This document shows positions 14,032 to 64,000 of a DNA stretch of 64,000 nucleotides, piece by piece. The DNA lies in contig JBGSUI010000188.1 in NCBI GenBank assembly GCA_041736175.1, positions 8,717 to 72,716 on the forward strand. The letters are read 5' to 3'. How positions within the stretch are numbered: position 1 is the stretch's first letter; each line of letters starts with the position of its first letter. Under the pieces are notes generated by a model. It had not been told where the DNA came from. It was given only the letters and a program-made list of their open reading frames with translations, and ran no database searches. The DNA comes from Oligoflexales bacterium (GTDB taxonomy: Bacteria; Bdellovibrionota_B; Oligoflexia; Oligoflexales; CAIYRB01). Both the position numbers and the translations under genes were made by a program.

Positions 14032-17000
14032 TTGGGAGTGAACACATTGGCGCAAAGGCGCAAAAAGCGAAATCGTAGCGGTCCTAATGCACCTGGAACT
14101 GATCAAAGTCAGCCTCAGTCTGTAAGACCTCCATCCTTTACCAGATCACTCGCTCCAGCAGTGGAGGGAGATGTTCGACAACGGGGAGATATCTATTTTC
14201 AGCAGGGAAGGGTCCTCGAACCTCAAGCAACCCCTGAAAGGATTTCTTCCCAGGTCAACGGTAAAGGTGGCCAATACACCGTTACGATCGATTTGGCACT
14301 GGATCCAAAAAAACGCCGAGCGGCGATTAGCGCTCTGTGTAGTTGTCCATTTTTTGCTGAGGGGCGAGGATGCTGCAAACACATTTGGGCTGTTCTAGTC
14401 TTTGCAGATCACTCTAAAGAAACACTTTTTAAGGTTCCACCGGGGTTTCAAGTGGGATTTCTCAAGCGCAATACACCGACTCCACGTAAACTGCCTGCTG
14501 TTGTTAGCGTCGCGCCGGGCGAATCTAGCCGCATCAGAGCTTTTTCGGCCCGAGACTTGGCGTCTCCGGGTACCAATCGTGAGCCTGAACCAAGGCCTCC
14601 CGAACATCGATCGGGTCGCAACGACCAGCCCAACTGGCGCGACGCCCTTAAGATGGTCTCCCATACCCAACGGGACCTTTGGGAATCGAAACAAAAGATT
14701 TCGCCTCAAGCAGCCCAAGATCTCCACTACGTCCTCGATGTGGAGCAGACTAAACGCTCGGGACAACTTACGATTCAGCTCTATCGAAGCATGGGAGTCA
14801 CTGCACCTGACGAATCCCAAACTTTTTTACTCGTTCCGGCGGCGATCGATCCCCATATTCTCGACTCCCTAAGCGAAGGTACTGATCGAGAAGTCCTCAT
14901 GAACTTTTTTGGGGTCGCATCAACAACCGTCGCCCGAGCGGGGACCTGGGAAGACGGAGCCACCAATCTCAGGACTCGAGGCCACTCTTTTGTGGTCGCC
15001 GATTGTCTCCGCTTAGATCTTATCCGTAAATTAGCCCAAACTGGTCGGTTTGGATGGCTTTCCCTCGATGAGATTAAAAATGAAAAAGACCGCGGAGAAC
15101 CTTCGCCTGGAGCTTCCGCGGCACCTCATTCTCCCCAAGTCCCGCCGGTCCACGGTCTGGATCCTCAGGTCTTTAAGCCTATCGGCCTAGACGAGGGTGA
15201 CATGTGGTCATTTCAGCTAAACGTGTCTCCCCGTAAACAAGACGGCATGTGGCTCATACGAGGTGAAATCACTCGAAACAAAGAGGTCCTCCCCTTAGCC
15301 TATGCCCTTGCCACCTTCCACGATGGCCTTGTGATTTTAAAAGACAAAATAGTATTTGTCGCTGCCCAAGACCCCCGCCAGGGAGGCTGGATGCCTGCGA
15401 TCAGGCAATTTGGAACGATTCGAGTAGACAAGCCCTCCCAAGCTTCCTTCCTGAGAGCCTATGCGGATCAAGTCGGTGCTCCCGCCATTGAACTACCCAT
15501 CGAAAGTGGTTGGAGTCTCATGCGGGGAATCCCTAAGCCAAAACTGATTTTTTCTTCAGCACCCTTCCATGAAAAAGCTATGGTTCTTATGGCTAATCAT
15601 GAGTTTGACTATGAAATCCCTCCAGGACCTGCTTTCTTAGAAGACCCACGGATCCAAACCCTAAGAACTCCGGGAATGCCCCTTGCTGCAACTGAGGGTG
15701 AAGGCGACGGCACGGGAGAGGCAGTCAGTGCTGAGACCAAAACAGTGCCGAAAGAGACTCTCCCTGAAATCCCCCAAACCCGGGTGATCCTTAAACGGGA
15801 TCCTGAGCAAGAAGAAGTTTTGATCAGAGACCTTTGTGCCCATTCTGGAGTCCATCCTTCGGCTGGACGCGGGGTTTCAGGAGCTGATGTTTTTGTGGAT
15901 ACATCGTCCCTTTCGGAGCTAGTGGCGGATCTAACCTTAAGAGGTTGGTCTGTGGAGGCCGAAGGCAAAAAAGTAAGAACCGGTCGGAGTTTTAATGTTG
16001 ATGTGAAGTCCAATATGGACTGGCTCGATTTGAGGGCCCGGTTTGATTTTGGCGACGGCCATGGGATCGACCTGCCAAAGATTCTTGAAGCGATGCGCAA
16101 GGGCGAAGATCGCATCCAACTCAATGATGGCACCGTGGGACTCTTGCCCGAATCTTGGCTCAAGCAGTTAGAGCCGATTTTGAAAATGGGGGAGTCCCTC
16201 GAAAATTCCGATACCCTACGCTACCAGTCCACCCATGCGGCTTTTTTAGATATCCTGGTAGAAGCTGCAGAGACTGCTTCTATCGATGAGTCTTTCGCGG
16301 CCTACCGAGCTAAGCTAGCAACATTTAGCGGCATCCAAACCTCCCGGTGTGCTGCTACTTTCAAGGGGGAGTTGCGTCCCTACCAAAACCAAGGTTTAGG
16401 TTGGCTAGAGTTTCTGGATGAGTTTGCTTTTGGTGGCTGTCTCGCTGATGATATGGGTTTAGGTAAAACCGTCCAGGTACTGGCCCACCTCCAAAAGCGA
16501 CGCCTGGACCAGAAAAAGGCTCTTAAGAGCACACAAAAAGACAAGCTGCTTCCAAACCTTGTCGTAGCCCCCACCAGCCTTATTCATAACTGGGTGGACG
16601 AAGCCCAGCGATTTGTTCCCGATATCAAGGTAGCTCCCCATATGGGTGCCTCCCGGTGCCGAGAACCTGCGGAGCTCAGCCGTTTTGATATCATCGTCAC
16701 CTCCTATGGGACCATGCGTAGCGATATCGAGATGCTCGGTTCCATGAACTTCGATTACGTGATATTAGACGAGGCCCAGGCGATCAAGAACGATACAACC
16801 CAAGCGGCTAAAGCAGCAAGGGCGCTGAAGGCCAAAAGGCGTCTAGCGATGTCCGGAACTCCCGTGGAAAATCGCCTGTCGGAACTGGGATCTCTCTTTC
16901 GGTTTTTAAATCCAGGCATGTTTGAAAATGCTGCGGCCTTTGCCGAGCTGTTTTCAGGTCCTGCAAAACTCACCCCTGGACGCTTGACGACCTTAGCGAA

Positions 17001-17778
17001 AGCTTTGCGGCCCTTTATCTTACGGCGTACCAAGGAACAAGTCCTTCCTGATCTGCCTGGCAAGACCGAAACAACCATCTACTGCGTTCTCGATGATGAT
17101 GCCCGTAAGGAATACGATCAGCTTTCGGCCCATTACCGAGCTTCCTTGAAGAAACAAGTCAAAACGGCCGGAATGCAAAAAACCAGGATGCAAGTCCTCG
17201 AAGCCCTCCTCCGCCTCAGACAGCTAGCCTGCCACCCTGCCTTGATCGATCCGAAAAGGATGGCCGATCCCAGCGCCAAACTGGATCTGTTAGAAGAACA
17301 ATTGGAAGAGGTGGTCAACAACGGTCGAAAAGCACTGGTGTTTAGTCAATTTACATCTATGCTGGCAATCGTCAAAAACCGTTTAGATGCCCGTGGAATC
17401 CCCTATGAATATCTGGACGGATCGACCACTGACCGTAAAGAAAGAGTGGAGAATTTCCAGAACAACGAAAAAATCCAGTTGTTTTTGATCAGCCTTAAGG
17501 CTGGCGGGGTCGGGCTCAATCTAACGGCTGCGGACTATTGTTTTATCCTGGATCCCTGGTGGAATCCCGCCAGCGAAGCCCAGGCCATCGACCGAGCCCA
17601 TCGGATCGGCCAAAAAAACCATGTTTTTGCCTATCGACTTATTGCCAGGGGGACCGTAGAAGAGAAAATCCTCGAACTCCAAGCGGCCAAACGCAAGCTT
17701 GTCGACGGTATCATTGCGGCAGATGGTGATATCCTCACAGAAATGACCGTCGAAGATCTGGATTTTCTGTTAGGGTAG
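14032..17778 (+). CDS. SWIM zinc-finger / SNF2-family helicase (1248 aa)
   Basis: SWIM CxCx..CxH: CSCPFFAEGRGCCKHIWAV. SNF2 N-domain LADDMGLGKTVQ and ILDEAQAIKN. Helicase-C FLISLKAGGVGLNLT and QAIDRAHRIGQ. TTG start at 14032 with AAGGTGG upstream. Confidence 0.88.
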   Translation: MGVNTLAQRRKKRNRSGPNAPGTDQSQPQSVRPPSFTRSLAPAVEGDVRQRGDIYFQQGRVLEPQATPERISSQVNGKGGQYTVTIDLALDPKKRRAAISALCSCPFFAEGRGCCKHIWAVLVFADHSKETLFKVPPGFQVGFLKRNTPTPRKLPAVVSVAPGESSRIRAFSARDLASPGTNREPEPRPPEHRSGRNDQPNWRDALKMVSHTQRDLWESKQKISPQAAQDLHYVLDVEQTKRSGQLTIQLYRSMGVTAPDESQTFLLVPAAIDPHILDSLSEGTDREVLMNFFGVASTTVARAGTWEDGATNLRTRGHSFVVADCLRLDLIRKLAQTGRFGWLSLDEIKNEKDRGEPSPGASAAPHSPQVPPVHGLDPQVFKPIGLDEGDMWSFQLNVSPRKQDGMWLIRGEITRNKEVLPLAYALATFHDGLVILKDKIVFVAAQDPRQGGWMPAIRQFGTIRVDKPSQASFLRAYADQVGAPAIELPIESGWSLMRGIPKPKLIFSSAPFHEKAMVLMANHEFDYEIPPGPAFLEDPRIQTLRTPGMPLAATEGEGDGTGEAVSAETKTVPKETLPEIPQTRVILKRDPEQEEVLIRDLCAHSGVHPSAGRGVSGADVFVDTSSLSELVADLTLRGWSVEAEGKKVRTGRSFNVDVKSNMDWLDLRARFDFGDGHGIDLPKILEAMRKGEDRIQLNDGTVGLLPESWLKQLEPILKMGESLENSDTLRYQSTHAAFLDILVEAAETASIDESFAAYRAKLATFSGIQTSRCAATFKGELRPYQNQGLGWLEFLDEFAFGGCLADDMGLGKTVQVLAHLQKRRLDQKKALKSTQKDKLLPNLVVAPTSLIHNWVDEAQRFVPDIKVAPHMGASRCREPAELSRFDIIVTSYGTMRSDIEMLGSMNFDYVILDEAQAIKNDTTQAAKAARALKAKRRLAMSGTPVENRLSELGSLFRFLNPGMFENAAAFAELFSGPAKLTPGRLTTLAKALRPFILRRTKEQVLPDLPGKTETTIYCVLDDDARKEYDQLSAHYRASLKKQVKTAGMQKTRMQVLEALLRLRQLACHPALIDPKRMADPSAKLDLLEEQLEEVVNNGRKALVFSQFTSMLAIVKNRLDARGIPYEYLDGSTTDRKERVENFQNNEKIQLFLISLKAGGVGLNLTAADYCFILDPWWNPASEAQAIDRAHRIGQKNHVFAYRLIARGTVEEKILELQAAKRKLVDGIIAADGDILTEMTVEDLDFLLG

Positions 17779-17818: not shown

Positions 17819-20506
17819 ATGGATCTTAAGGCAGAACGCAGCTATTTCGAAGGGTCACCGGAGCAGGTGGCCACTCTTCTCGAAACCGATTTAGTCCTTG
17901 GCCTCCCTCTGGACCAAGTTTCCGAGAGGGCCAAAACATATGGGCCCAACGCCCTAAAAGTGGGAGACCGAAAAAACCCCTTCTTGATGTTCTTAAAGCA
18001 GTTTAAGGATTTGTTGATTCTTATCCTTATTGCCGCAGCTTTAGTGACCGCACTCCTGGGAGAGACCACCGACTTTTTTGTTATTTTAGGGATTGTGATA
18101 CTCAACGGACTATTGGGATTTTTCCAGGAGTATCGCACCGAAAAGACTATGCAATCTTTGGCCAAACTGACGCCCCAAAAAGCGCTGGTCCAAAGACAAT
18201 CCGGCAAAACTAAATCACATGAAAAACAAATCATCAGCGCCGCTGACCTAGTCCCAGGGGACCTGGTTTTTCTAGAAGCGGGTGACCGCATCCCTGCAGA
18301 CCTAAGGCTGATCACCACGACAAATCTGACCATAAACGAATCCCTGCTCACGGGAGAATCGGTCCCAATCCTCAAGAATCACCAAGGGCTACCAAAAAAA
18401 AACCTAGCTCTGGGAGATCAAGTCAACCTCGCTTTCAGTGGAACCTTTGTCACTAGCGGGCATGGATCGGGCCTGGTTTACGCCGTGGGTCAAAAAACCG
18501 AACTCGGCAAGATCGCCCATTTAGTGGAGCAAGGGAATGCTGGGCTGACGCCTTTGCAAATGCGGCTCAATCAACTTGGCAGGCGAATTGCCGCCGTCGT
18601 TGGAGTCCTTTGCTGCCTTTACTTTGGCTTTGGTTTTCTTCGGGGCAATGATCCCTTAATTATCTTTATGACCGCCATAAGCCTCGCTGTTGCAGCCATT
18701 CCCGAAGCCTTACCCGCTGTCATTACCCTTATGCTCGCTCTTGGCGCAAGACGCATGGCGAGACAAAAGGCTTTGGTCAAAAGTTTACCCGCAGTGGAAA
18801 CTTTAGGATCAGTCACCTATATCTGTACGGATAAGACAGGGACCTTAACCGAAAATAAAATGCAAGTTCAAAGCCTCTTGATAGCGACTCCTGAGGGGCC
18901 AAGCAGGCTGGTTTTAGCCAGTGATTTTAAAAATCGTGAAGAGCCAAGCTCCCTCGCCCTACTCCAAGCCATGGCCCTCAACCAAAATTGTGAACTCAGT
19001 CGCGAGGGCGTCCTCTTAGGTGATCCCACAGAAATTGCTCTGGCTGTCTTTGCTCAAAATCAAGGTCTTAAGCGGTCTGAGCTAGAGTTGGAGACACCTA
19101 GGATTGGCGAACTCCCCTTTGCATTTAACACAAGATTTATGGTGACAGCCCATCAACAGAGTGAGGGGATAGGGAAGAGTGGAGTCCAAAAATCTACTTT
19201 ACTAATTGTAAAGGGTGCAGCTGAAGCTGTGATCAAGCTGCTCCCACCGCACCAGCAACAGGGGTGGAGTGATGCAGCCAATCATCTTGCCACCCTTGGC
19301 CTCCGGGTTTTGCTTTATGCCACCACAGAGACCGAGCAAGTTAAGTTGCCTTTAGAGTTGGCCCAAATTTCCCAATACAGCTTTCAGCCCATAGGACTCG
19401 TTGGGCTCGAAGATCCACCGCGCCAAGAGGTTGCAGAGTCCATCGCCAAATGCCACCGAGCAGGGATCAAGGTCGTTATGATGACGGGGGATCACCCATT
19501 GACAGCCAGGGGGATTGCGCTCAAAACAGGCCTTATCCACGACAGCATGTCCCTGGAGCATCAAAAGGTGACCCTTGGCTCAGAGTTGGACAACCTACCC
19601 GACGACGTCTTAACTGATACGATCCACAACACCAGGGTCTATGCCCGCGTCAACCCTGAACAAAAAATCAGGATTGTAGAACACCTTCAAAAACAAGGTG
19701 AGTTTGTGGCGATGACAGGGGACGGTGTCAATGACGCCCCCGCTCTCAAACGAGCCAATATTGGAATCGCTATGGGTCTTAGTGGAACCGATGTGGCACG
19801 GGAAGCCTCCCAGATGGTTCTTTTGGACGATCATTTTGAAACCATTGTGGTGGCCATTAAAGAAGGTCGACGCATCTATGACAATATTCGAAAGTTTGTT
19901 CGCTACAGTTTAACAACTAACTCCGGTGAGCTTGGAACCATGTTGTTGGCCCCCTTCTTTGGGCTTCCTATACCACTGTTGCCAATCCATATCCTGTGGA
20001 TTAATCTTATCACCGATGGGCTTCCTGGACTTTCTCTTATCGGTGAAAAAGGCGAGCCCGACATTATGGACCGTCCACCTCAAAACCCTAAAGAAAGTAT
20101 ACTGGCAAGGGGCCTGTGGCAGCATGTGCTTTGGGTGGGAATCCTTTTGGCCGCGATCAATATCGGCACGGCAGCTTGGTTTTATTTCGATGGTTCTCCA
20201 AGGTGGCAAACCGTGGTTTTCACCACCGTGACATTGAGCCAATTAGGGCACCTCCTAGGGATTCGGTCCAGATCCAGAACCATCTTTAGTAAAGATTTTT
20301 TCACTAATCCTTGGCTTTTGGCCAGCATCCTTTGGGCTGTTTCCATGCAACTCCTCGTTATCTACCATCCGACCCTCAATCGAATTTTTAAAACCACGCC
20401 TCTATCGATTTCTGAGTTTAGTCTTGCTGGAGGATTTGCTGTCATAGTTTTAGTGGCTGTAGAACTAGAAAAGCGCTGGCATTGCCGAAAAATGCGCCTC
20501 ATTTAA
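17819..20506 (+). CDS. cation-transporting P-type ATPase (P2-type, Ca2+-ATPase-like)
   Basis: TGES, PEALPAVIT, the phosphorylation site ICTDKTGTLTENKM, MMTGDHPLTA and the hinge MTGDGVNDAPALKRANIGIAMG. AGGAGG RBS. Confidence 0.9.
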   Translation: MDLKAERSYFEGSPEQVATLLETDLVLGLPLDQVSERAKTYGPNALKVGDRKNPFLMFLKQFKDLLILILIAAALVTALLGETTDFFVILGIVILNGLLGFFQEYRTEKTMQSLAKLTPQKALVQRQSGKTKSHEKQIISAADLVPGDLVFLEAGDRIPADLRLITTTNLTINESLLTGESVPILKNHQGLPKKNLALGDQVNLAFSGTFVTSGHGSGLVYAVGQKTELGKIAHLVEQGNAGLTPLQMRLNQLGRRIAAVVGVLCCLYFGFGFLRGNDPLIIFMTAISLAVAAIPEALPAVITLMLALGARRMARQKALVKSLPAVETLGSVTYICTDKTGTLTENKMQVQSLLIATPEGPSRLVLASDFKNREEPSSLALLQAMALNQNCELSREGVLLGDPTEIALAVFAQNQGLKRSELELETPRIGELPFAFNTRFMVTAHQQSEGIGKSGVQKSTLLIVKGAAEAVIKLLPPHQQQGWSDAANHLATLGLRVLLYATTETEQVKLPLELAQISQYSFQPIGLVGLEDPPRQEVAESIAKCHRAGIKVVMMTGDHPLTARGIALKTGLIHDSMSLEHQKVTLGSELDNLPDDVLTDTIHNTRVYARVNPEQKIRIVEHLQKQGEFVAMTGDGVNDAPALKRANIGIAMGLSGTDVAREASQMVLLDDHFETIVVAIKEGRRIYDNIRKFVRYSLTTNSGELGTMLLAPFFGLPIPLLPIHILWINLITDGLPGLSLIGEKGEPDIMDRPPQNPKESILARGLWQHVLWVGILLAAINIGTAAWFYFDGSPRWQTVVFTTVTLSQLGHLLGIRSRSRTIFSKDFFTNPWLLASILWAVSMQLLVIYHPTLNRIFKTTPLSISEFSLAGGFAVIVLVAVELEKRWHCRKMRLI

Positions 20507-22650
20507 GCCACATTTTTAAGTATCGTTGTCGATACTGAAGGCAACTGGATCACAAATCTCGTGTTTGGGTGCTTGCTATCAAGGGTCAAACTCCCCTTAT
20601 GGCTCTCGATAATGCCAAGGGAAATACTGAGTCCTAGCCCTGTTCCTTTGCCGACAGGTTTTGTTGTGAAAAAAGGCTGAAGCATCTTTTCTGCGATGTC
20701 TGGTGGAATCCCTAGACCCGAGTCGGTGATTGTGATGCTACATTGGGTTCCATCATCCACAAGATCGATCTCAATCCATGGCTGTTCTGTCATGACTACG
20801 GCATCATACGCATTATTTAATAGGTTGACCAAAACTTGAGAAATCTGAACGGGCCGGCAGTAAATGCTTTGTTGACTATTCAAGCGCGCAGTCAGTCTGA
20901 TACCACTGGCATCCATGCGAGGTTTACAGAGATCCAAACAGTCTTCGACCAGTTTTAGAACCGGTATTTTTTCAATTGGGTCAGAGTCACCCGCTCTTGC
21001 AAAGGCCCTTAGCCCATCTATAATCTTGCTAATTCTCGAGACCGAGCGGCGCATAGCATCGATGGTCTTAGGAACAACTTTTGCGGCATCAGGGTGATCT
21101 ATCAGTCTACCCAGTTGTTGTAGATAACCATCGATGATGGCGAGGGGATTTTTAACCTCATGGGCAATCCCTGCTGCCATCTCTCCTAGAGAGGTAAGTC
21201 GGGAGGCCGTGACTAACTTGGACTGCTGGATTTTGGCATCATGCTCGAGTCTATATTGCTCACTTAGGTCGCGGATAAAGGCCGTAAAAATCTTGCTTCC
21301 ACTCGGAAGATGGATAGCAACGAGAGAAAGCTCGATGGGAAATTCTCGACTGCTTGCATGTTTGCCCGGTAATCTAAGTCTTTTGGAGATTTTATCCGTC
21401 CGTTGATCAGATAGATATTTTTGAAAAGCCTTCCGATGGGCGGCCTTGTGGGTGTCGGGGATAATGGTATGTTCGAGAGACTTTCCGATCACGCTTTCTT
21501 TGGCCAATCCAAAAATCGCTTCCGCAGCGGGATTAAATTCTAAAATAGTTCCTGTTTCATCCGCTGAAATAATGGCATCGATGGCACCCTGTAAAGCCAT
21601 CTCCCTACGCATCGAGATCTCAAATATCTGTTTGGAAGTGATCTCATTGAGACTTTGCATTCGTTTTATCCTATTGACCGAATAAACCGTCAGGAGAACG
21701 CTGAATCCCCAAAGCAAAAGAGCAGTTAATAATGACCAGTTACGAAATTTTTCCAGGATCCCCATCCTGATTTCAAGCAGTGTGGTCAGCTCGGCATGGG
21801 AGATCGACCAGAAAGACTTTAGACTGTCCATCGAAAGTATCAAATCGCGGTGAAGTTCATCGGGTTTCTGATTTGTCTGGAGTCCCGAACTTAACTCTTG
21901 GAGTTTCTCAAGAAGACCTTGCAAAGACCCTGTAAGTCTGCCGCTTAAGGAAGGATTGACACCGTTAAAATTGGCGTCCTCCCGCAAGGCACTTGCGGTT
22001 TTCGTCTGCAAGGCTGGGATCACTTCATATTGAAGCAGGGCTAAAAGTCCTAATCCTTTTGACCAATTGGGCCGCATCGTATAGTCCCCTAGGACACCGG
22101 TGTCCAGGAGATAGGCAACGGCCCTAGGAATACAAATAACTGTAAGATCCATAAGATAATAGGTGTCCAATTCTGGATCTAGGATAAGATTGGAAGTGTC
22201 TCCTACATGGCGAATGAGCTCAAGCATATGCACTAGGGCTTTTATTAGATCGCTTGGATCAGGTTTAACGCTGATCTGCTCCATAAGATTCATGAGTTTT
22301 TTGGGGGCGAGATGCTCCCGCCCTCGAATAAACAAAGAATTGTCATCGGCCCCCACCTCGGACCCAAGCTCCTGATCGATATTTCTAAAGGCCGTCAGTG
22401 ATGAGATAAGATGAGCGTTATTTGGTTTGGAGGAACCTAGGAGGAGATCAACTGTCTGAAAAGCCATCAGCCCCAGGGGGTATAAGTACCTAAGTCCCTT
22501 GATTTCTTTTTCACTAAATTCGATCTGTGAATTCTTTGTATTTAAGAAAAACAAAAAAAGAAGCGTAATTGGTACTGAATAGACGATAGATACCAAGACT
22601 GGTAAACGAGATGTATTGATATATGATGGCTTTGGACTCATTATAATCAA
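20503..22650 (-). CDS. sensor histidine kinase: two-TM extracytoplasmic helical sensor, PAS, HisKA, HATPase
   Basis: H-box AAGIAHEVKNPLAII, N-box LLNNAYDA, and G-boxes DSGLGIP / GTGLGLS. A PAS-like region lies after the second TM. No response regulator gene is adjacent. Confidence 0.88.
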   Translation of the reverse strand: MIIMSPKPSYINTSRLPVLVSIVYSVPITLLFLFFLNTKNSQIEFSEKEIKGLRYLYPLGLMAFQTVDLLLGSSKPNNAHLISSLTAFRNIDQELGSEVGADDNSLFIRGREHLAPKKLMNLMEQISVKPDPSDLIKALVHMLELIRHVGDTSNLILDPELDTYYLMDLTVICIPRAVAYLLDTGVLGDYTMRPNWSKGLGLLALLQYEVIPALQTKTASALREDANFNGVNPSLSGRLTGSLQGLLEKLQELSSGLQTNQKPDELHRDLILSMDSLKSFWSISHAELTTLLEIRMGILEKFRNWSLLTALLLWGFSVLLTVYSVNRIKRMQSLNEITSKQIFEISMRREMALQGAIDAIISADETGTILEFNPAAEAIFGLAKESVIGKSLEHTIIPDTHKAAHRKAFQKYLSDQRTDKISKRLRLPGKHASSREFPIELSLVAIHLPSGSKIFTAFIRDLSEQYRLEHDAKIQQSKLVTASRLTSLGEMAAGIAHEVKNPLAIIDGYLQQLGRLIDHPDAAKVVPKTIDAMRRSVSRISKIIDGLRAFARAGDSDPIEKIPVLKLVEDCLDLCKPRMDASGIRLTARLNSQQSIYCRPVQISQVLVNLLNNAYDAVVMTEQPWIEIDLVDDGTQCSITITDSGLGIPPDIAEKMLQPFFTTKPVGKGTGLGLSISLGIIESHKGSLTLDSKHPNTRFVIQLPSVSTTILKNVA

Positions 22651-22705: not shown

Positions 22706-22762
22706 AATAAGGAAATTCATTGCGATAGACTGCCCTGCTACGCTATAAGGAGTCCGGTTTAG
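22706..22762. repeat. left copy of a ~57-bp direct repeat (attL-like)
   Basis: AATAAGGAAATTCATTGCGATAGACTGCCCTGCTACGCTATAAGGAGTCCGGTTTAG. The 46-bp core 22717-22762 differs from 25881-25926 at a single base. Confidence 0.9.
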
Positions 22763-22773
22763 CCAAACGTATT

Positions 22774-23022
22774 TCACCGGCGGATGTCTTCCATTAATTT
22801 AAGCACATCGAATGGACCGACGCCTTTTGCCATCCCGCACAAAGTTTCGAGCTGTTGCTCTATAGCTGCCGATTCTGCAGGTGACAATTGACGTTCGATC
22901 TGACCGGCGCTCTTTAGTGTTGAGGCAGTCAAGTTATGAATGAATTTAGCGACTTGCCTCTTTTTATCCTCAGACATCTTCTCAATAGCCAGGAAAAGCT
23001 CTTCGGCTAACCTGTTTTTCAT
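22774..23022 (-). CDS. hypothetical small acidic helical protein (82 aa from ATG 23022; 106 aa if 23094)
   Basis: ATG 23022 has GGAGGAAG 3 nt upstream. MKNRLAEELFLAIEKMSEDKKRQVAKFIHNL... I recognise no family with confidence. Confidence 0.45.
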   Translation of the reverse strand: MKNRLAEELFLAIEKMSEDKKRQVAKFIHNLTASTLKSAGQIERQLSPAESAAIEQQLETLCGMAKGVGPFDVLKLMEDIRR

Positions 23023-23270
23023 CACTTCCTCCCCATAGGGCATCGCACCTCTGTGGCTGGAGGGATCACCAGCCTTCTCCGTATCAATCGGCATATTTCT
23101 AAAACCCCTTAAAACTCAAATAGGTTTAATCTAAAAATCTAGGCCAACTCCCTAAAAATTATCACAAATCCCATTATTCGCCCACCGCCCAAATATATTT
23201 ATATGGGATCAAACTCTCTAGACGAGTGTGTCGTCCCGGGGCAAACCGCTTCGGAAAAGTCGGAAAAGGT

Positions 23271-23288
23271 GGACCCAGAGTTGGGTCC
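23271..23288 (-). terminator. hairpin downstream of the 115-aa ORF
   Basis: GGACCCA gagt TGGGTCC, a 7-bp perfect stem. The minus-strand downstream sequence is ACCTTTTCC. Confidence 0.3.
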
Positions 23289-23305
23289 AATTATGCCTAG
23301 CACCT

Positions 23306-23653
23306 TTACTTTGGGGCTCCATCTAAATTTTTATGATCACCCTTTTCTTTGCCTGGAAAGAAGTCTTTGATTTTGCCCCCGCTGTTAAAAAATTTTTGCA
23401 AAGACTGGAGATCTCCTTCTGAACCAGGACCTTCAAGGACTTTTAAAGCTTCAAGGTTTTCTGAATCGACCTTGTAGGTTCCATATTTGACTCTATAATT
23501 TTTCTGAATTTTATCGATCGAAACAACGACTAAATCACCTGGTTTTAGCCTGCGCTCATAAAACGAGGACTTGGGATCGACCACTACAATCTCTAAGGTG
23601 TCGGCGCAATTGCTTTCGTTGACCCAGCAGCAGCTCCAGATATCGCGAGCCAC
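23306..23653 (-). CDS. hypothetical protein (115 aa); coding status uncertain
   Basis: The ORF has only a GTG start, no visible SD and no internal Met. No recognisable motifs. Confidence 0.3.
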   Translation of the reverse strand: MARDIWSCCWVNESNCADTLEIVVVDPKSSFYERRLKPGDLVVVSIDKIQKNYRVKYGTYKVDSENLEALKVLEGPGSEGDLQSLQKFFNSGGKIKDFFPGKEKGDHKNLDGAPK

Positions 23654-23967
23654 AGGTATGATACGCTTCTTCGCAGAGAACTTGAAGCCGTTTGACGATA
23701 CGCATCAGACTCAACACCGGCGACATCATCGTTGGCACTATTGGATCGGTACAGCGCCAGAAATATTTGACACTACTTGTGCTGAGGCCAAAACCTAGGG
23801 AATCCGTTCTGCAGCAACCGCTTCGTCAATCTTGACTTGCTGACAGCTGACCCAATCGCCCTTTGTTCTTCTAAGGCGAAGAGATAGAGCAATCAATATC
23901 CTTTTTTTCGAACCAGCGGTAAATGGAAAGACTGGCTGGATAGCTTAAAAATCAGAAACAAATTCGC

Positions 23968-24846
23968 TTATCGAAACGAACCGAGCGCCCGTGCCACTTC
24001 GTGCTTGTGGCGACGATTGCACTCTGCCCAGCGAAGTTCGTCGGCGTCGAGCGCGGCAAGAAATGCAAATCGCTGCCGCACCTTGGCTTCCCAATCCGTG
24101 ATGTCCGCTGGATGAACGAGTACTCCGATCGGTGCCTTGGGAAAGTCCCCTGGGGATCTCTGAGCTAGGACATTGTCGGGTAGCAATGGCGCGGTGCCAC
24201 GTCCGTCGTCAACGACGTCGCCATAGACTTTTAGTACCCAAAGTCGTCTGACCAAGGCTTCCGGAAGAGGCCGAGTGGCGAACCATGCAAGGTCATACAG
24301 ATCCCTTGCGAGCGAGACCCGGCGGTACCGCGCCAATTTTTCTGCACAAGCCTCGGCCTCAGCTATGATGGGCAAGGCGCCAAGAGTAAAGTCATACTCG
24401 TCGTGGATCGGCATGCGCAATACAGGGACCCGTTCGGGGGGTAACGCGAGTGGTCGCCTCGCGCACTCAACACGCGCAATGCCCAAGACGTCACCCAGAA
24501 CCGGGTGGCTAACATCGAGCTGCCACGTGCGGGCGTCGTTGGACGGCTTCGACAAAGTGAAAGAAAAATCCCCAATGCGGGCATTGTTCATCGCATCACA
24601 GACATCAACGACATCATCCTCGTTCGGTACTGCAAGGTCGATATCGGTGGAAAAGCGCCCCTGATTGCCGATGCGGCATTTGCGTAGGCTTGTACCGCCC
24701 TTGAATGCGATGTCGTCACGATCAAATATACCGACCAACTCCAGTACGTGAAGGAGATGATCTTGGGCCACATCAAGCAGGGCCGGCACATAGGCATCTT
24801 GGCGAGTACTGGCATGACGAAGGATTAGAGCGCGCGTCAGTGGCAT
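23968..24846 (-). CDS. AbiEii/AbiGii-family nucleotidyltransferase toxin (type IV TA)
   Basis: IAFKGGTSLRKCRIGNQGRFSTDIDLAV matches the remembered PF08843 core (FKGGTAL.K....RFSEDLDF). It sits 5 nt downstream of an AbiEi-like gene. Confidence 0.75.
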   Translation of the reverse strand: MPLTRALILRHASTRQDAYVPALLDVAQDHLLHVLELVGIFDRDDIAFKGGTSLRKCRIGNQGRFSTDIDLAVPNEDDVVDVCDAMNNARIGDFSFTLSKPSNDARTWQLDVSHPVLGDVLGIARVECARRPLALPPERVPVLRMPIHDEYDFTLGALPIIAEAEACAEKLARYRRVSLARDLYDLAWFATRPLPEALVRRLWVLKVYGDVVDDGRGTAPLLPDNVLAQRSPGDFPKAPIGVLVHPADITDWEAKVRQRFAFLAALDADELRWAECNRRHKHEVARALGSFR

Positions 24847-24851
24847 TTGTC

Positions 24852-25718
24852 TTAGGCCTTCTTATTGGCGGTAAGCAGCGGCGCAACCACATGGTCGCTG
24901 ACGCCGGTCCTGGAGTCCCAATGCGCGGGTCCGGAGGTGCCGATCTTTGTTGCCTGCAAGGTCTTTGGTAGAAGGCTCAGCACGCCACGTTTACCACTCA
25001 GGCGCATCAAGTAGACAGCCCGTTGACGTGTCGCCCCCGTTGCTACCTCAAGGAGTGGAGCAAGCCGACTGAGATCAATATCGGCGCAGAAGTCAGCAAG
25101 CCTGCCGGCGAAATCAACCCATGCATCAAAGCTGGCCGGACGCGACGCGATCTGCACGAGGAGCGCCTCCGGGCCGAATCCCGGCAGACCTTCGGCCCAG
25201 TTCAAAAGGTCAAGGCCTCTCTTGCGGAGGAGTTTTATCGACGGCGCGAGAGCCTGCGACGAGAGCCCTTTCGGAAACAACGTAGTGACCCGGCTAACGC
25301 TACCCCGCAGAGCTTTGGGGAACGGAACGTGATCTTCGAGCCAAATGGCCGGACGATCCGGACGTCGATCAAGATATCCCAGGTGCCACGCCGCGCTAGA
25401 CCCAGCGAGAAAGAATCGAGCACTCGGTTTAGTCAGGCGCCAGCCGCGCAGGTCAATATAAGGGTCAGCAAGGGACTCCACACCAGGAGACAAGAACGCA
25501 TAAGCGCCATTGAAATGCGTCCGGCGGAGCCATCCTAGCCGGACAAGCCGCGACAGGGCCACCTCGGCTCCGACAGTGCATTGACTCTCCTCAAGATAGC
25601 AGGCGATGATTTCGCGTGTAACGACGGCGGGGGCACGCTGCACCATATGTGCAATGAGTCCAGCCGCCCACTTAGGTACGACCCGCGCAGCCGGATTTGC
25701 TGCTGAAAAAGACTGCAT
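24852..25718 (-). CDS. AbiEi-family antitoxin / transcriptional regulator (type IV TA)
   Basis: N-terminal wHTH pattern VVTREIIACYL...ALSRLVRLGWLRRTHFNGAYAFL (the L.RL...G.L.R...G.Y motif). 288 aa, immediately upstream of the AbiEii-like gene. Confidence 0.65.
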   Translation of the reverse strand: MQSFSAANPAARVVPKWAAGLIAHMVQRAPAVVTREIIACYLEESQCTVGAEVALSRLVRLGWLRRTHFNGAYAFLSPGVESLADPYIDLRGWRLTKPSARFFLAGSSAAWHLGYLDRRPDRPAIWLEDHVPFPKALRGSVSRVTTLFPKGLSSQALAPSIKLLRKRGLDLLNWAEGLPGFGPEALLVQIASRPASFDAWVDFAGRLADFCADIDLSRLAPLLEVATGATRQRAVYLMRLSGKRGVLSLLPKTLQATKIGTSGPAHWDSRTGVSDHVVAPLLTANKKA

Positions 25719-25868
25719 ATTTGCCCACTGTCAATTGAAGTCTGAATGCGCAACCTACTTAATAACTCAGACTCTGTTTCACAGTAAATCATACTGCGAA
25801 ATAAAGCCAACTTGCAACATTTAAATCATGAATTAGACCTCAATTCACAGTAACCGTGGCCGCAAGAG

Positions 25869-25926
25869 AATAAGGGAAAATCATTGCGATAGACTGCCCT
25901 GCTAAGCTATAAGGAGTCCGGTTTAG
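25869..25926. repeat. right copy of the ~57-bp direct repeat (attR-like)
   Basis: AATAAGGGAAAATCATTGCGATAGACTGCCCTGCTAAGCTATAAGGAGTCCGGTTTAG, ending 18 nt before the rlmN ATG. Confidence 0.9.
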
Positions 25927-25944
25927 GCATGGATAGAGTTCCTT

Positions 25945-27084
25945 ATGAAAATCTATAACATCCCCTTGAAATCCAGGAAAACACTAGTGATTTCGTCTTT
26001 TTATTCTCAAACTCGGGACCAACTAGCATCCCTCTGTGGGGCTCTAGGGGTTCCCTCTGTCCACGCTCTTGATCTCTATCGCGAAGCCTATAAGGGGCTT
26101 AACCACCAGCCCTGGTCACGACTAGGTTTGCCAAAGGTTTTAAAGGCTTACTGCCAAGAAAACTTTCTAGAAACCCCCAAAGTAAGGTTAAGCACCGGCA
26201 TCCTGTCGGGATACGACGGAAGCGTTAAATTTAGGGCTTTCTTACCATCCATCCTTGAGACTGCCCAAGATTCTCAAAAAGAACTGGTCGTCGAAACTGT
26301 CTTAATGCCAGAAAAAAAACGAATCACCCTGTGCGTGTCAACCCAGGTCGGGTGTGCCCAAGGGTGCGTGTTTTGTCATACGGGGCGTATGGGCCTTATT
26401 CGCAACCTCCTTGCCGCAGAGATTGTCGGCCAAATCCTAGCCGCCAAACAATGGATAAGAGATCACCCGGAGTGGCTACAGCAGGTAGGCCTAAAATCGG
26501 ACCAAACTATTTCTAATATCGTGTTTATGGGTATGGGCGAGCCCCTGGATAATGTCGATGAACTTATAACATCGATTGACATTATGACCGATCCTTATGG
26601 GCTCGCCTTAGGCTTACGGCATCTCTCGGTTTCCACAGCAGGGCATTTGGACGGCCTTAAAATACTCCTTTCCAGGGTAAAGGGTGTTCGTTTAGCTTTA
26701 AGCGTCCATAGCCCGGACGAAGTAAAACGGGGCAAAATCATGCCCATCCAAAAACGCTGGCCTCTAACAGATGTCGTGAATTACCTGGAAGAGGAGTTAC
26801 CATCCAATGGTGGCAGCGTCATGCTGCAATACACCTTGATCGCCGGTGTCAACGACTCCCTCCAGGAAGCTCAGGATCTAGTCCTTATAGCAAAACGACT
26901 CCAGGCCAAGGTCAATATCATTCCCCTGAATACCGTCGCTGTAAACCGCCTTAAATCCCCAACACAGATACAAGTGCAGACCTTTCGCGATGTCCTCCAT
27001 AAAGAGGGGGTCAGGGTTATGGTCCGCTACAGTAAGGGCCAAGATATCGCCGCGGCCTGCGGCCAGCTGGTTGTAGAGTCCTAG
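25945..27084 (+). CDS. rlmN: 23S rRNA/tRNA (adenine-C2)-methyltransferase RlmN (radical SAM)
   Basis: CVSTQVGCAQGCVFCHTGRMG (CxxxCxxC radical-SAM cluster), FMGMGEPLDN, LSVSTAG, and the C-terminal IAAACGQL catalytic Cys. Confidence 0.9.
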   Translation: MKIYNIPLKSRKTLVISSFYSQTRDQLASLCGALGVPSVHALDLYREAYKGLNHQPWSRLGLPKVLKAYCQENFLETPKVRLSTGILSGYDGSVKFRAFLPSILETAQDSQKELVVETVLMPEKKRITLCVSTQVGCAQGCVFCHTGRMGLIRNLLAAEIVGQILAAKQWIRDHPEWLQQVGLKSDQTISNIVFMGMGEPLDNVDELITSIDIMTDPYGLALGLRHLSVSTAGHLDGLKILLSRVKGVRLALSVHSPDEVKRGKIMPIQKRWPLTDVVNYLEEELPSNGGSVMLQYTLIAGVNDSLQEAQDLVLIAKRLQAKVNIIPLNTVAVNRLKSPTQIQVQTFRDVLHKEGVRVMVRYSKGQDIAAACGQLVVES

Positions 27085-61300: not shown

Positions 61301-61910
61301 TCTCATCGAGGAAGATTTCTACCCGTATGGGGTGTGGATAGAGAGGTGAAAAAAAGTCTACAATACCACCTCTCATGCTAAAATTACCTTCAACCTCTAC
61401 GGAATAACTTTCTCGGTAACCTAATGCCAATAAATTGGCTTTTACCTGGTCAGGATCCAACTCCGATCCAATCTTTAGGGGCATTAGGCCACGAAGCAAC
61501 TCGTCCTTTGGCTTGGTCACCTGAAGGAGCCCAGTAAGCGTTGTGAGAATCAGTTGGTTTTGACCAGAATTGATTAGCTTTAGTAAACTATGCTGTCTTT
61601 GAATCCTTTGGTTTCGGTGGTCCACATACCGATCTGTGCCATAATTAGAAATATAGGGAAGAACGGTGACCGTATCTTGGGTCCAAGGCTTTTCGCGAAA
61701 GATCCATTGAAAATGGGTAAACCATTTGGAAAGATCTTTTTGGTGTTCAACCAAAAAAACGACCTTTGAATACTTATTTTTCGAGATCAACTGTGCTGAT
61801 AAAAGCTCTTTAATGGCATCATCACAAGTAGGAATCTGATAACTGAGCCCTTTTTCAAAGGACTTAAAGATACTATCTAAAAGCCCCTGTAAACAGTTTC
61901 CATAAATCAT
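58395..61910 (-). CDS. mfd: transcription-repair coupling factor Mfd
   Basis: About 1170 aa. UvrB-homology N-terminus, RNAP-interaction domain, helicase motifs GDVGFGKTEIA, VVDEEQRFG, LSATPIPRTL and QIRGRVGRS, and a TRCF C-terminal domain. ATG 61910-61908 overlaps the top6A stop (TGATG); the track start 61913 is a TTG. Confidence 0.93.
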   Translation of the reverse strand: MIYGNCLQGLLDSIFKSFEKGLSYQIPTCDDAIKELLSAQLISKNKYSKVVFLVEHQKDLSKWFTHFQWIFREKPWTQDTVTVLPYISNYGTDRYVDHRNQRIQRQHSLLKLINSGQNQLILTTLTGLLQVTKPKDELLRGLMPLKIGSELDPDQVKANLLALGYRESYSVEVEGNFSMRGGIVDFFSPLYPHPIRVEIFLDEIKSIRFFDRADQRSIESLNEAILAPASEFYFSESQRQQLVQSLYSQALDRGVGNAERLELVESFKRGELSNTVAHYLPFLNGKTEPGLNYLPRESLWIFADGIHQTMMAHEGVMEDIRIALAKDKEKKVPSSDLEEHFAGQSMESFSDLVKGRSVDFTGIKPVADSQIGGGHQGGLWEIVNLKGQKDDPFEHWMESLKEYLSNQTSITILTQNTERQERIKSLLGARNLPIVTARENLPPNPAQESILLQLGFLSQAVYLEIENKILIPDYRLLGISPKANLSSKRKLSSTFQNFGDLNVKDLVVHHQHGVGRYLGLSKLAIGGQQTEFLILEYAGNDKIYLPVDRLNALSRYEISTDHSHQRALDRLGGSFEAKKQKVKLETLEIARQLLTEQAKRLVAKGYHYVEPDETFFSFEGDFPYEETDDQVKVLEEVEQDFRSGRPMDRLVCGDVGFGKTEIALRAAMRTVLEGYQVLILVPTTVLCYQHFSTFSKRMEKYGVRVDHANRFVPQKQVVKSLEDLSRGAVDILIGTHRLLSKDVKPAKLGLLVVDEEQRFGVLHKEKLKKLREKAHVLTLSATPIPRTLHMALLGLRDISVIATPPRQRLPIKTVIAPFDEEIISKAITQEIARGGQIFFVHNRVQDIDQFALKIARYCPDARIAVAHGKMGEHHLEQVIRDFLNHKYDLLLCTTIIEAGIDMPNVNTLIVDKADRFGLAQLYQIRGRVGRSNVQAYAYLLVESKGRLSEESLKKLDIIASHQELGAGFLIANRDLELRGAGELLGDSQSGHVQDLGLEIYRDLLLESISLLKGEPNQQRFDVEIKIPVDVFIPTEYIQNEKERLRIYKNLFACENHEELESVYEGLKDCYGIPPPEMIVIYRIASLKIDLRKMSVESLIFTKIGIELYFKDPDKAIAAGILKAIDSQPLVYRPLPKKGVLVKDGGFGSITNSLEIIDKIILLVAKLSVFWS

Positions 61911-63091
61911 CAAATAAAATCTCGTTTTTTGATTTTATCAATAATGATCTTTTCCATTCCCTGAGGATCCCTTGGGTTTACAGATATAAACGATTGCTGC
62001 TCGCAACGTCGTTTATTTTTAACAAGCCACTCTAATATACCCTTTAAGTCCGCATTTTTTTTGTCTTTGAAAAATGGATCGTTTGCCAGTGCATCTTTAG
62101 CTTTCTTTAGCGACCGTGCCTCCTGTGGATCATTCTCTCTCACAGGGTAGTCTACAAGATCATACTGCTGGATATCTTTTGGAAGCACTCCTAAAAACCT
62201 CACTTCGGGTGCACAGAAATCCGAGTTTCTGATCAAAGATGATGCCGACCCTGCCTTAAGGGTTCTGTAGATATTTTGCATTGTATAGGCATCAAGGTCT
62301 CCAAAGAAATAGAGTGGGACTTTAAGTTGATCTTGGATCCTACGCACCCAAGCTCTCACGGCATTTGAAGGGACCCCTTGTGCACCAACGACAATACAGT
62401 TATGACGTTTCGTAAATCCATTGGCTACCAAGGTATTAGCCGTTCCCTGTGATTCAATGACAATACAAAACTCAATGGGAGTCTTAGCCGTTAGCCTAAG
62501 ATTTTGGGGCCGATTGCGAGGCTGGTAGGGAGCCGTGCCCAGAGTCGAAAGGTCAACAGTCGCCACACTGCCATCCAGTTCTGTCTCATTAACTATTAAC
62601 TGTTTAGAATAGGTTTGGCCACCCCGATCATCTGCCACACAGTTAAGCTCTTCTCGATAAGCCTCCATCATTTCGCACAAAAAATCGATCACAGAATCTG
62701 ATTCGTCCTGGTCCTGAAAATCTAGTGGCCTCAATTTGCTTTCATGTTTGATAAGACCCTTGGCAACATAATAAAGCTCTCTTTTTGTGTTGATATTTGA
62801 AATTTCTACATTGCGGAGCAAAATTTCTAACATAAAAATTGCCCGGGTAATTTTTTTAACCGAAGTCGCATTGAGTTCAGAAGTCACCTTTTTACTACCT
62901 GGTGACAAGTATCCGATTTTACTATTATAATGAGCATTGTCAAGAGCGCATTTAGTCGCCTTCAGCACAGGTCTTCGAGCTTTCTCCAAATCTGCTAACA
63001 TTCTTTCACATAGATCCTGCCCTAAGTGAATAACGTCACTCTCCGTTTTTTTGACGCGTCTAAACTGGCTATTGATTTCCAATGGATGCAC
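61910..63091 (-). CDS. top6A: DNA topoisomerase VI subunit A (Spo11/Top6A family)
   Basis: 393 aa. Catalytic-Tyr motif TKRELYYV in the winged-helix/5Y-CAP region. Toprim Glu (IVIESQGT) and a DxD motif (FFGDLDAYTMQNIY). Sits directly downstream of a Top6B-like gene. Confidence 0.75.
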   Translation of the reverse strand: MHPLEINSQFRRVKKTESDVIHLGQDLCERMLADLEKARRPVLKATKCALDNAHYNSKIGYLSPGSKKVTSELNATSVKKITRAIFMLEILLRNVEISNINTKRELYYVAKGLIKHESKLRPLDFQDQDESDSVIDFLCEMMEAYREELNCVADDRGGQTYSKQLIVNETELDGSVATVDLSTLGTAPYQPRNRPQNLRLTAKTPIEFCIVIESQGTANTLVANGFTKRHNCIVVGAQGVPSNAVRAWVRRIQDQLKVPLYFFGDLDAYTMQNIYRTLKAGSASSLIRNSDFCAPEVRFLGVLPKDIQQYDLVDYPVRENDPQEARSLKKAKDALANDPFFKDKKNADLKGILEWLVKNKRRCEQQSFISVNPRDPQGMEKIIIDKIKKRDFI

Positions 63092-63129
63092 TCCTCAGTG
63101 TACAGGTGAAAATTCGCAGCCTTCTTAAA

Positions 63130-64000
63130 TCATACTTGGCGGCGATTTACCTTTGGTAGGGCTGTCTTTTCAACCTCTATTTGCGTCTTAGTCTCTTGCT
63201 CCGCCTCTTTGGAAATTGTATCGAAAAGGGTCGACATCTTCTGCCGCTTTTCTTCTAGATAATCAGCAAGTCGGTCCTCTGCAGCCGCTAAATCTTTGGC
63301 GATCCCTTTGGCATCCGACTCCAATATTTTTGCAAGTCCTTTAGTCGCAACTTGCTTGCGACCTTCGGAAGCCCCTAAGATGCGCGCTAAGGCTTCGATT
63401 AAGATCGGCCCAAATTGTTCGATATGCTGAACTCTTTGCTCCAGTTCGTCTGCCTTATGCTCCCGAGCCAAATACCGGGACAACCTTTGACCGGTCTGCA
63501 TTAGAGCTTTTCTCAGCTCTTCCACAAGCTCATCAGAGGCATCGATCGTTTCTTTGGAGGCGTTTTTAAAGCGAATAAACGGCGAAACAACGCTGATGGC
63601 AAAGATATAGGGTCCTTGGGGTAAACCACCACGGGGGTGTTTGAGTCCATAGGACCTCCAGTTAACGGAGGTGATCGCTCGCACGATCGCGCAGGACGCT
63701 TTGTCAAATTGGAGGGGGACTCTATTAGCAAAGCGAAGCACCTGGACTGATTCTTCTAAATCGACCCCACTGCGCTCCTTAAGCCTAGCAATGGCCACTT
63801 CGACTTGAACTGGCTTAAAGTCACAGATCGCAGGCTTCCGTGTCAGCACCGCAAAGTAATCGATCTCACCCAGCCGTCGGACGCTTAATGCTAGACTTTC
63901 TTCGCCGACGGCAATGACCGTCTGGGTGGAAGGTGCCATCAACTTGGCCTTTTGGATGCTGCCAAAAAGTAGTTTAAATTGCTCGTCCGTTAAAACATCA
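63130..64000 (-). CDS. top6B: DNA topoisomerase VI subunit B, C-terminal transducer part (gene continues past window end)
   Basis: RFANRVPLQFDKASCAIVRAITSVNWRSYGL...GPYIFAISVVSPFIRFKNASKETI matches the remembered Top6B transducer block (RFAN..PL.Y....C.I......W..YGL). The frame is open from 63942 to base 64000, by my own check. Confidence 0.75.
   Translation of the reverse strand, partial: DVLTDEQFKLLFGSIQKAKLMAPSTQTVIAVGEESLALSVRRLGEIDYFAVLTRKPAICDFKPVQVEVAIARLKERSGVDLEESVQVLRFANRVPLQFDKASCAIVRAITSVNWRSYGLKHPRGGLPQGPYIFAISVVSPFIRFKNASKETIDASDELVEELRKALMQTGQRLSRYLAREHKADELEQRVQHIEQFGPILIEALARILGASEGRKQVATKGLAKILESDAKGIAKDLAAAEDRLADYLEEKRQKMSTLFDTISKEAEQETKTQIEVEKTALPKVNRRQV

Follow-up and report, generated by a model that had tools for sequence, protein, structure and literature searches.

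Introduction

AbiE systems are type IV toxin–antitoxin (TA) and abortive-infection modules in which AbiEii (DUF1814), a GTP-binding nucleotidyltransferase, acts as the toxin and AbiEi as the antitoxin, which also represses the operon. TA modules, such as those of SXT or of superintegrons, are also known to stabilize genomic islands and arrays of cassettes. DNA may further be flanked by direct duplications of its target, which span 2-29 bp for known transposases, 24-29 bp within the IS1202 group and about 14-15 bp for casposons. Cis-mobilizable elements (CIMEs) are decayed integrative islands, defined for streptococcal remnants left by integrative and conjugative elements (ICEs) or by integrative and mobilizable elements (IMEs) (PMC5704250). 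In this study, we analysed a 64,000-nucleotide stretch of an Oligoflexales bacterium (contig JBGSUI010000188.1, positions 8,717 to 72,716; hereafter the window), in which a 3.1-kb islet carrying an AbiE module lies between two direct repeats of about 60 bp, DR-L and DR-R, that separate a histidine kinase gene from rlmN. With a probability of about one half, we read this islet as a decayed, site-specifically integrated, CIME-like element, the repeats of which would be attL and attR and the recombinase of which would have been lost or would act in trans.

The islet resembles a CIME in that foreign DNA lies between target-derived direct repeats without integration or transfer genes and in that the repeat is present as a single copy at the unoccupied site of relatives. 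It differs in carrying no remnant that would link its descent to an ICE, an IME or a prophage: the repeat is unmatched in IMG/VR and in the JGI metagenomes, one open reading frame (ORF106) is an orphan and only the AbiE genes have relatives. Its target, moreover, is a putative promoter rather than a tRNA gene or the 3′ end of a gene, and it is very small (3.1 kb). The islet appears to work like a CIME rather than to be a proven member of the class, and the att role of its repeats is putative. Its cargo fits the sequence-level definition of an AbiE type IV TA system (adjacent AbiEi and AbiEii genes, one operon and an intact toxin motif) and shares with known AbiE systems the canonical gene order, the 5-nt gap, the two Pfam domains, repeated motifs at a promoter upstream of the genes and purifying selection on the pair. 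It differs in that AbiEi matches only the C-terminal AbiEi_1 model and in that its activity is a predicted one; AbiE describes the cargo of the islet only and does not explain the insertion. As in TA-stabilized islands, a TA pair lies on DNA that recombination between the repeats at its ends could remove, and removal of this DNA would be penalized, a stabilizing role that we infer; unlike them, the islet has neither an integron attC site nor an ICE backbone. No integron features were seen in the islet. With the IS1202 group and casposons it shares a direct target duplication flanking the inserted DNA, but here the duplication is at least twice as long and neither a transposase or casposase nor terminal inverted repeats are present. 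An insertion sequence or transposon was rejected, given the lack of a transposase and of terminal inverted repeats and a duplication of 60 nt.

Insertion at the kinase–rlmN locus

Close relatives were sought with an RlmN search of a large protein collection, and the contigs of the nearest relatives were compared with the window. In L098, the RlmN of which is 88% identical at the amino-acid level and 83% at the nucleotide level, the 5′ end of the kinase gene is followed by intergenic DNA, a single copy of the repeat and rlmN, and the left and right flanks each align to the matching flank of the window. In L099 (RlmN 73%) a 713-aa kinase gene and rlmN are divergent, with 253 bp between them. Because these two sister lineages hold the empty site, with a single repeat copy in L098, the comparison shows that 3,103 bp of DNA (22766-25868) entered the divergent kinase–rlmN intergenic region after the split from the nearest sampled relatives, and that a stretch of about 60 bp now stands on both sides of it. 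The original prediction had argued that taking out the interval and one repeat copy would restore a normal divergent intergenic region, and had proposed related genomes as the place to look for the empty site; L098 and L099 provide both. Its alternative of an ancient fixed structure, with both repeats and the interior in all relatives, is contradicted by the same two contigs, which are without the insert. In the more distant L100 (RlmN 63%) the kinase is no longer a neighbour of rlmN. The RlmN of the nearest reference genome (L003, an Oligoflexus metagenome-assembled genome) is only 49% identical and has other neighbours without synteny, making this last comparison uninformative.

The repeats were recovered by a repeat search of the window as a 55-nt direct repeat (22711-22765 and 25875-25929; 95% identity; spacing 3164). 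Global alignment extends them to the limits given in Table 1, over which 57 of 61 positions are identical and the remainder are three substitutions and one 1-nt indel. This agrees with the predicted 46-bp core, which occurs exactly twice in the 64-kb window (0 expected in shuffles), and with its predicted leftward extension of about 11 bp containing one indel.

Table 1. Features of the islet and its flanks (window coordinates)
Feature	Position	Strand	Basis or remarks
Histidine kinase gene (PAS/HisKA/HATPase), native left flank	20503..22641	-	Pfam; same gene adjoins rlmN at empty sites L098 and L099
DR-L, left direct repeat, 60 nt	22706..22765	+	Putative -35 TTGCGA 22720-22725, putative -10 TATAAG 22744-22749
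ORF106, orphan ORF, 106 aa	22774..23094	-	Stop codon 8 nt from DR-L
ORF115, called a 5′-truncated gene fragment; secreted-protein family of ~170-250 aa of unknown function	23306..23653	-	Homologue comparison
Non-coding or decayed spacer, ~300 bp	23654..23947	.	Six-frame translation: every frame stop-ridden
AbiE module, self-contained, foreign GC, sharp homology borders	23948..25865	-	GC 57-61% (~58%) against host ~45%; ~1.9 kb
AbiEii nucleotidyltransferase toxin, intact	23968..24846	-	Pfam PF08843 1.5e-17; PADLOC AbiEii 2.8e-97
AbiEi antitoxin/repressor, intact	24852..25718	-	Pfam PF09407 7.3e-16; ends 5 nt upstream of AbiEii
AbiE promoter/operator region, 147 bp	25719..25865	-	Promoter-like TTGCAA-N18-TATGAT (25817-25788) flanked by two ACTGTGAA-containing repeats
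DR-R, right direct repeat, 61 nt	25869..25929	+	Putative -35 TTGCGA 25884-25889, putative -10 TATAAG 25908-25913
rlmN, native right flank	25945..27084	+	NCBIfam TIGR00048 4e-79; Pfam Radical_SAM

The arrangement is not an assembly artefact, because it was recovered in the Logan assemblies of three independent runs (SRR28170465, SRR28170473 and SRR28170474; five contigs, all with the islet) and because the longest exact stretches common to the two repeats, of 24 and 21 nt, are below usual assembly k-mers. Some assemblies of the same population end within AbiEi or AbiEii and not at the repeats (L002 and L084 at their start, L086 at both ends); these breaks may arise from a graph tangled by near-identical AbiE modules of other organisms in the same samples.

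The same contigs bear on whether the islet is still mobile, that is, a non-autonomous element whose repeats are recognized by a recombinase from another part of the genome or from a helper element and which excises, transfers and re-integrates today. Such an element would have the geometry expected of att sites and would agree with the occurrence of close AbiE relatives in several genomes and islands. We nevertheless regard it as improbable: the islet appears to be fixed, since all five contigs contain it and the samples show no variant with an empty site; its repeats have diverged, with one of the changes in the middle; no other occurrence of the whole islet, meaning the repeats together with the ORF106/ORF115 segment, was found; and a recombinase was found neither in the insert nor among the 20 other ORFs of the window.

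The duplicated repeat

Alignment of the filled and empty sites reveals two conserved blocks, TTGC(G/T)A and TGCTA(A/G)GCTATAAG, that can be read as TTGCGA-N18-TATAAG; the hexamers and their 18-nt spacing are kept in the window, L098 and L099, while most of the spacer differs in L099. The repeat is thereby predicted to be a sigma-70-type promoter of rlmN (Table 1), and the duplicated stretch covers approximately -52 to +9 of this putative promoter. Conservation carries this assignment, since the consensus promoter scan demands T at the last position of the -10 hexamer and so left the TATAAG promoter of the repeat unlisted. DR-R would then be the rlmN promoter in its working position and DR-L a spare copy, which is now directed into the insert and antisense to its genes; the repeat does not include a strong promoter-like site of the kinase gene (22669-22640). 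DR-L carries derived states (C at 22741 and the loss of one G) in comparison with DR-R and with the single L098 copy, and DR-R keeps the states seen in L098. The drift of DR-L against the conservation of DR-R fits a crossover at the left edge and relaxed selection on DR-L alike. The two repeats differ at 4 of 61 positions, compared with a divergence of about 22% between the window and L098 in the same region, and the insertion is therefore old enough for decay.

Where rlmN itself starts is uncertain: L098 does not share the ATG at 25945, and its gene was annotated with a GTG start that corresponds to window position 25987. This conserved GTG may be the true start. The rlmN leader also holds a 9-codon ORF beginning with the ATG at 25930 (25930-25989).

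No tRNA or tmRNA genes and no Rfam families were found in the window, and the repeat, searched also as a degenerate pattern, is absent from the JGI metagenome contigs and IMG/VR. Of 111 fetched loci (designated by L numbers), only this one and the homologous locus of L098 contain the repeat. An RNA element is ruled out by these results, and so is a dispersed repetitive extragenic palindromic (REP)-like element, which the original prediction had named as the alternative that many copies of the 46-mer would indicate: there are two copies in 64 kb and 0 in the JGI metagenomes and IMG/VR.

The AbiE module

The matches to PF08843 and PF09407 are both above the gathering cut-offs, and the nucleotidyltransferase motif GG-x-S...D-x-D of AbiEii is intact ('KGGTSLRKCRIGNQGRFSTDIDL', GGTS...STDIDL). 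In comparison with L087, the ratio of nonsynonymous to synonymous divergence (dN/dS) is 0.04 for AbiEii and 0.26 for AbiEi, values that indicate purifying selection on the pair and mark it as a predicted functional cargo. The synonymous divergence (dS) between the window and L087 is 0.26-0.37, and no recent transfer of the module has therefore taken place between the two lineages. The region upstream of AbiE is 84% identical to its equivalent in L087, with the repeats conserved. Two ACTGTGAA-containing motif copies, ACTGTGAAACAGAGTC and ACTGTGAATTGAGGTC on the minus strand (window 25779-25860), flank the promoter-like site of AbiEi; these copies, conserved in L087, are candidate operator sites for AbiEi.

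The nearest relatives of AbiEii, with 95-97% amino-acid identity, occur in quite different genomes, and the module is present at 88-90% nucleotide identity in at least four other, unrelated genomic contexts. Homology to L087-L096 covers exactly 23948-25865 at 90% nucleotide identity, and that to L103-105 and L109-111 covers 23967-25850 at 88%; a distant blastn search of a plasmid database with the AbiE region gave no match. The module adjoins a HipA-type kinase toxin in L105 and L111; in L109, L110 and related contigs it lies beside a RecQ-like helicase and close to either an IS66 transposase or a fragment of a phage integrase. A 71% relative of the AbiE pair lies in L097 beside an IS630-type transposase, downstream of which is a 15-bp tandem repeat array of about nine AGCGCCGGATGCGAC-like units (L097:4273-4407). 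The homology borders vary by 15-20 bp among contexts, so the module has been reshuffled by imprecise events and has not moved from defined ends; precise, transposon-like ends of the module are ruled out by the same differences. A 96-bp piece from the interior of AbiEii, with 92% identity to window 24452-24547, occurs by itself between unrelated genes in L107 (3297-3392) and L108 (1348-1443) and looks like the scar of a lost AbiE module.

In L087 the module resides in a 5.8-kb island beside groES/groEL. The island ends in a perfect 29-bp direct repeat, GATTCTTACATCATCCCGCCCATGCCGCC (L087:2407-2435 and L087:8217-8245), which comprises the last seven codons of groEL (GGMGGMM), its stop codon and 5 nt. 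The genes of the island are ORFs of 118 and 194 aa, DUF6933, DUF1186/SEC-C, AbiEi and AbiEii, and no integrase lies between the 29-bp repeats. L087 is thus a second integrase-less, repeat-bounded island with the same AbiE module, and the position of its repeat at the end of groEL is the classical signature of what would be integration into a gene end. An apparent 55-bp duplication in L094 relative to L087 is an artefact of a scaffold gap of 100 N with overlapping ends.

The composition of the insert raises the question of whether it arrived in two steps, the ORF106/ORF115 segment first, with the duplication, and AbiE later at the junction between this segment and DR-R. The GC contrast within the insert (43-48% over ORF106/ORF115, near that of the surrounding genes, against 57-61% over AbiE) would suit such a history, as would the fact that only the AbiE part of the islet has relatives in other genomes and begins at a sharp border at 23948. 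A two-step origin is, however, improbable. The second insertion would have had to fall within 3 nt of a repeat boundary, neither an internal repeat copy nor any other scar is present at 23948, and a single donor that had already acquired AbiE explains the GC mosaic equally well.

Remaining insert content and the search for mobility genes

ORF106 has no family match, at curated cut-offs or with significance, in four hidden Markov model (HMM) libraries (Pfam, PHROGs, NCBIfam and PADLOC) and matches only itself among 5.8 billion proteins. Its single-sequence AlphaFold2 (AF2) model is all-helical with a predicted local distance difference test (pLDDT) score of 55, which is uninformative. The idea that it is excisionase-like was dropped, as there were only sub-threshold Arc/VapB hints (E 0.025-0.09), no homologues and a model too poor for a fold search. 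The homologues of ORF115 range from 140 to 435 aa, one being a 4,860-aa multidomain protein, and all six of the sequences read start with a signal-peptide-like N-terminus. ORF115 matches only residues ~65-160 of these homologues (the family HMM aligns 67-154 of 218), and with this HMM the N-terminal third of the family is undetectable upstream in any frame. A frameshifted full-length gene was considered, given weak colinear tblastn matches in another frame (E 0.7-20), and was rejected because the family HMM did not confirm them; ORF115 is accordingly called 5′-truncated or decayed from its sequence. Relatives of ORF106 and ORF115 were not found in IMG/VR, and the spacer that follows them (23654-23947) is common to no other AbiE context.

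None of the four interior ORFs matches a recombinase, transposase or excisionase in the same four libraries, as the original prediction had stated of integrase, transposase and excisionase ORFs. A recombinase pseudogene hidden in the spacers was also considered; six-frame translations contain nothing recognizable, and the apparent helix–turn–helix likeness of one peptide ('SIYRWFEKK') is backed by no search. A repeat search found no terminal inverted repeats at the insert ends.

These negative results would suit a one-off illegitimate capture of a linear foreign fragment during repair or replication, in which the repeats would be a long target-site duplication and neither a recombinase nor an att site would have been involved. 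The fragment could have entered through the filling-in of breaks staggered by about 60 nt, through template switching or through capture at a junction created by a spontaneous tandem duplication. Besides the want of mobility genes or their remnants in the insert and the 20 other ORFs of the window, this origin would account for the scrap-like composition of the insert (a truncated gene, an orphan ORF, non-coding DNA and one functional module), for the presence of cargo within 3-8 nt of both repeats, for the imprecise movement implied by AbiE borders that vary among contexts and for the duplication of approximately -52 to +9 of the putative promoter, a discrete protein-occupied unit. We know of no bacterial mechanism, however, that produces a 60-bp target duplication around captured DNA. 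The duplications made by known transposases are shorter and the insert has no terminal inverted repeats, whereas long direct repeats around islands are the normal outcome of site-specific integration. Illegitimate capture is, in our estimate, unlikely, but it is the main rival of site-specific integration. We attach only a slight probability to the more specific proposal of a recombinase-free insertion that duplicates a promoter-sized footprint, for example by capture at a promoter occupied by polymerase, with template switching or widely staggered breaks as the means.

The genes of the window beyond the islet are those of a core chromosome and include a ribosomal-protein operon, secY, rpoA, adk and surA-like genes among others. 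An SNF2/SWIM helicase-like gene (1205-1248 aa; 14032-17778) lies just upstream of a P-type cation ATPase gene and the kinase gene. Genes for topoisomerase VI subunit A (Spo11/Toprim) and for the transducer domain of subunit B adjoin each other at 61910-63942; topoisomerase VI is an enzyme of archaeal and eukaryotic type that is uncommon in bacteria.

Origin of the islet

In the site-specific integration that we favour, the DNA would have come in as a circle with the 60-bp sequence on it as attP, and a tyrosine-type recombinase would have integrated this circle at the chromosomal copy (attB) to give attL and attR. The recombinase would have been encoded either by the element, and then deleted, or elsewhere in the genome. 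After integration the islet would have eroded, leaving one gene 5′-truncated, one orphan ORF and about 300 bp of non-coding DNA, and DR-L, no longer driving rlmN, would have drifted. The AbiE pair, with its own promoter and operator, would have been retained by purifying selection. It may provide the host with phage defence and, as a TA system, would penalize loss of the islet through recombination between the 60-bp repeats; defence and penalized loss together would be the reason why the islet persists in every population sample. Under every version of its origin, the repeats are long enough for occasional recA-dependent loop-out.

Several observations favour this origin. Long, imperfect direct repeats are typical where attP and attB share identity; the L087 island, with the same module bounded by repeats at a gene end, provides a precedent; and the foreign GC of the AbiE cargo and the visible decay of ORF115 favour an old integrated islet. 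Also in favour are the age suggested by the repeat divergence, the retention of the L098 states in DR-R, the intactness of the AbiE pair, the occurrence of its module in other contexts and the presence of the islet in all five contigs of the population. Other observations weigh against it. Neither the insert nor the 20 other ORFs examined in the window yielded an integrase, transposase, excisionase or relaxase, and the insert shows no remnant of such a gene. The target is a putative promoter instead of a tRNA gene or the 3′ end of a gene. The cargo is flush with the repeats, with the AbiE end 3 nt from DR-R and the ORF106 stop codon 8 nt from DR-L, and hence there is no obvious room for arm-type recombinase sites. 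A third, internal repeat copy, which would be a scar of accretion, is missing, the best local alignments within the insert lying inside the shuffle distribution. Neither a circular junction nor an empty-site contig was found in the samples carrying the islet, and no other genome is known with an element at this 60-bp site.

The attL/attR signature seen in the original prediction thus holds as far as an insertion with target duplication is concerned, but a recombinase remnant, an arm-type region and an excision product were not found. Of the three origins that it offered, a decayed islet fits best and an element mobilized in trans is disfavoured, while an unusually long target duplication remains a candidate. 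The analysis goes beyond that prediction in identifying the cargo as an AbiE module of foreign GC, in finding this module shuffled among unrelated genomes and in recognizing the repeat as the putative rlmN promoter.

Significance

The islet is a fairly ordinary decayed genomic islet that adds an instance rather than a principle. Its unusual aspect is the combination of a promoter-sized duplication, cargo flush against the repeats and no trace of a recombinase. If the repeats are not att sites, the duplication of a 60-bp promoter would point to an unrecognized insertion mechanism, and a recombinase-free duplication of a promoter footprint, if true, would be a way not described before for small defence modules such as AbiE to get into core intergenic regions. 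The locus is a clean and fully delimited case of a compact defence/TA module entering the core chromosome of a poorly known Oligoflexus-related lineage, for which sequences of the filled and the empty sites are available, together with several independent contexts in which this module occurs. The case indicates that AbiE modules travel between unrelated bacteria as self-contained units of about 1.9 kb, promoter included, and that integrase-less, repeat-bounded islets can last long.

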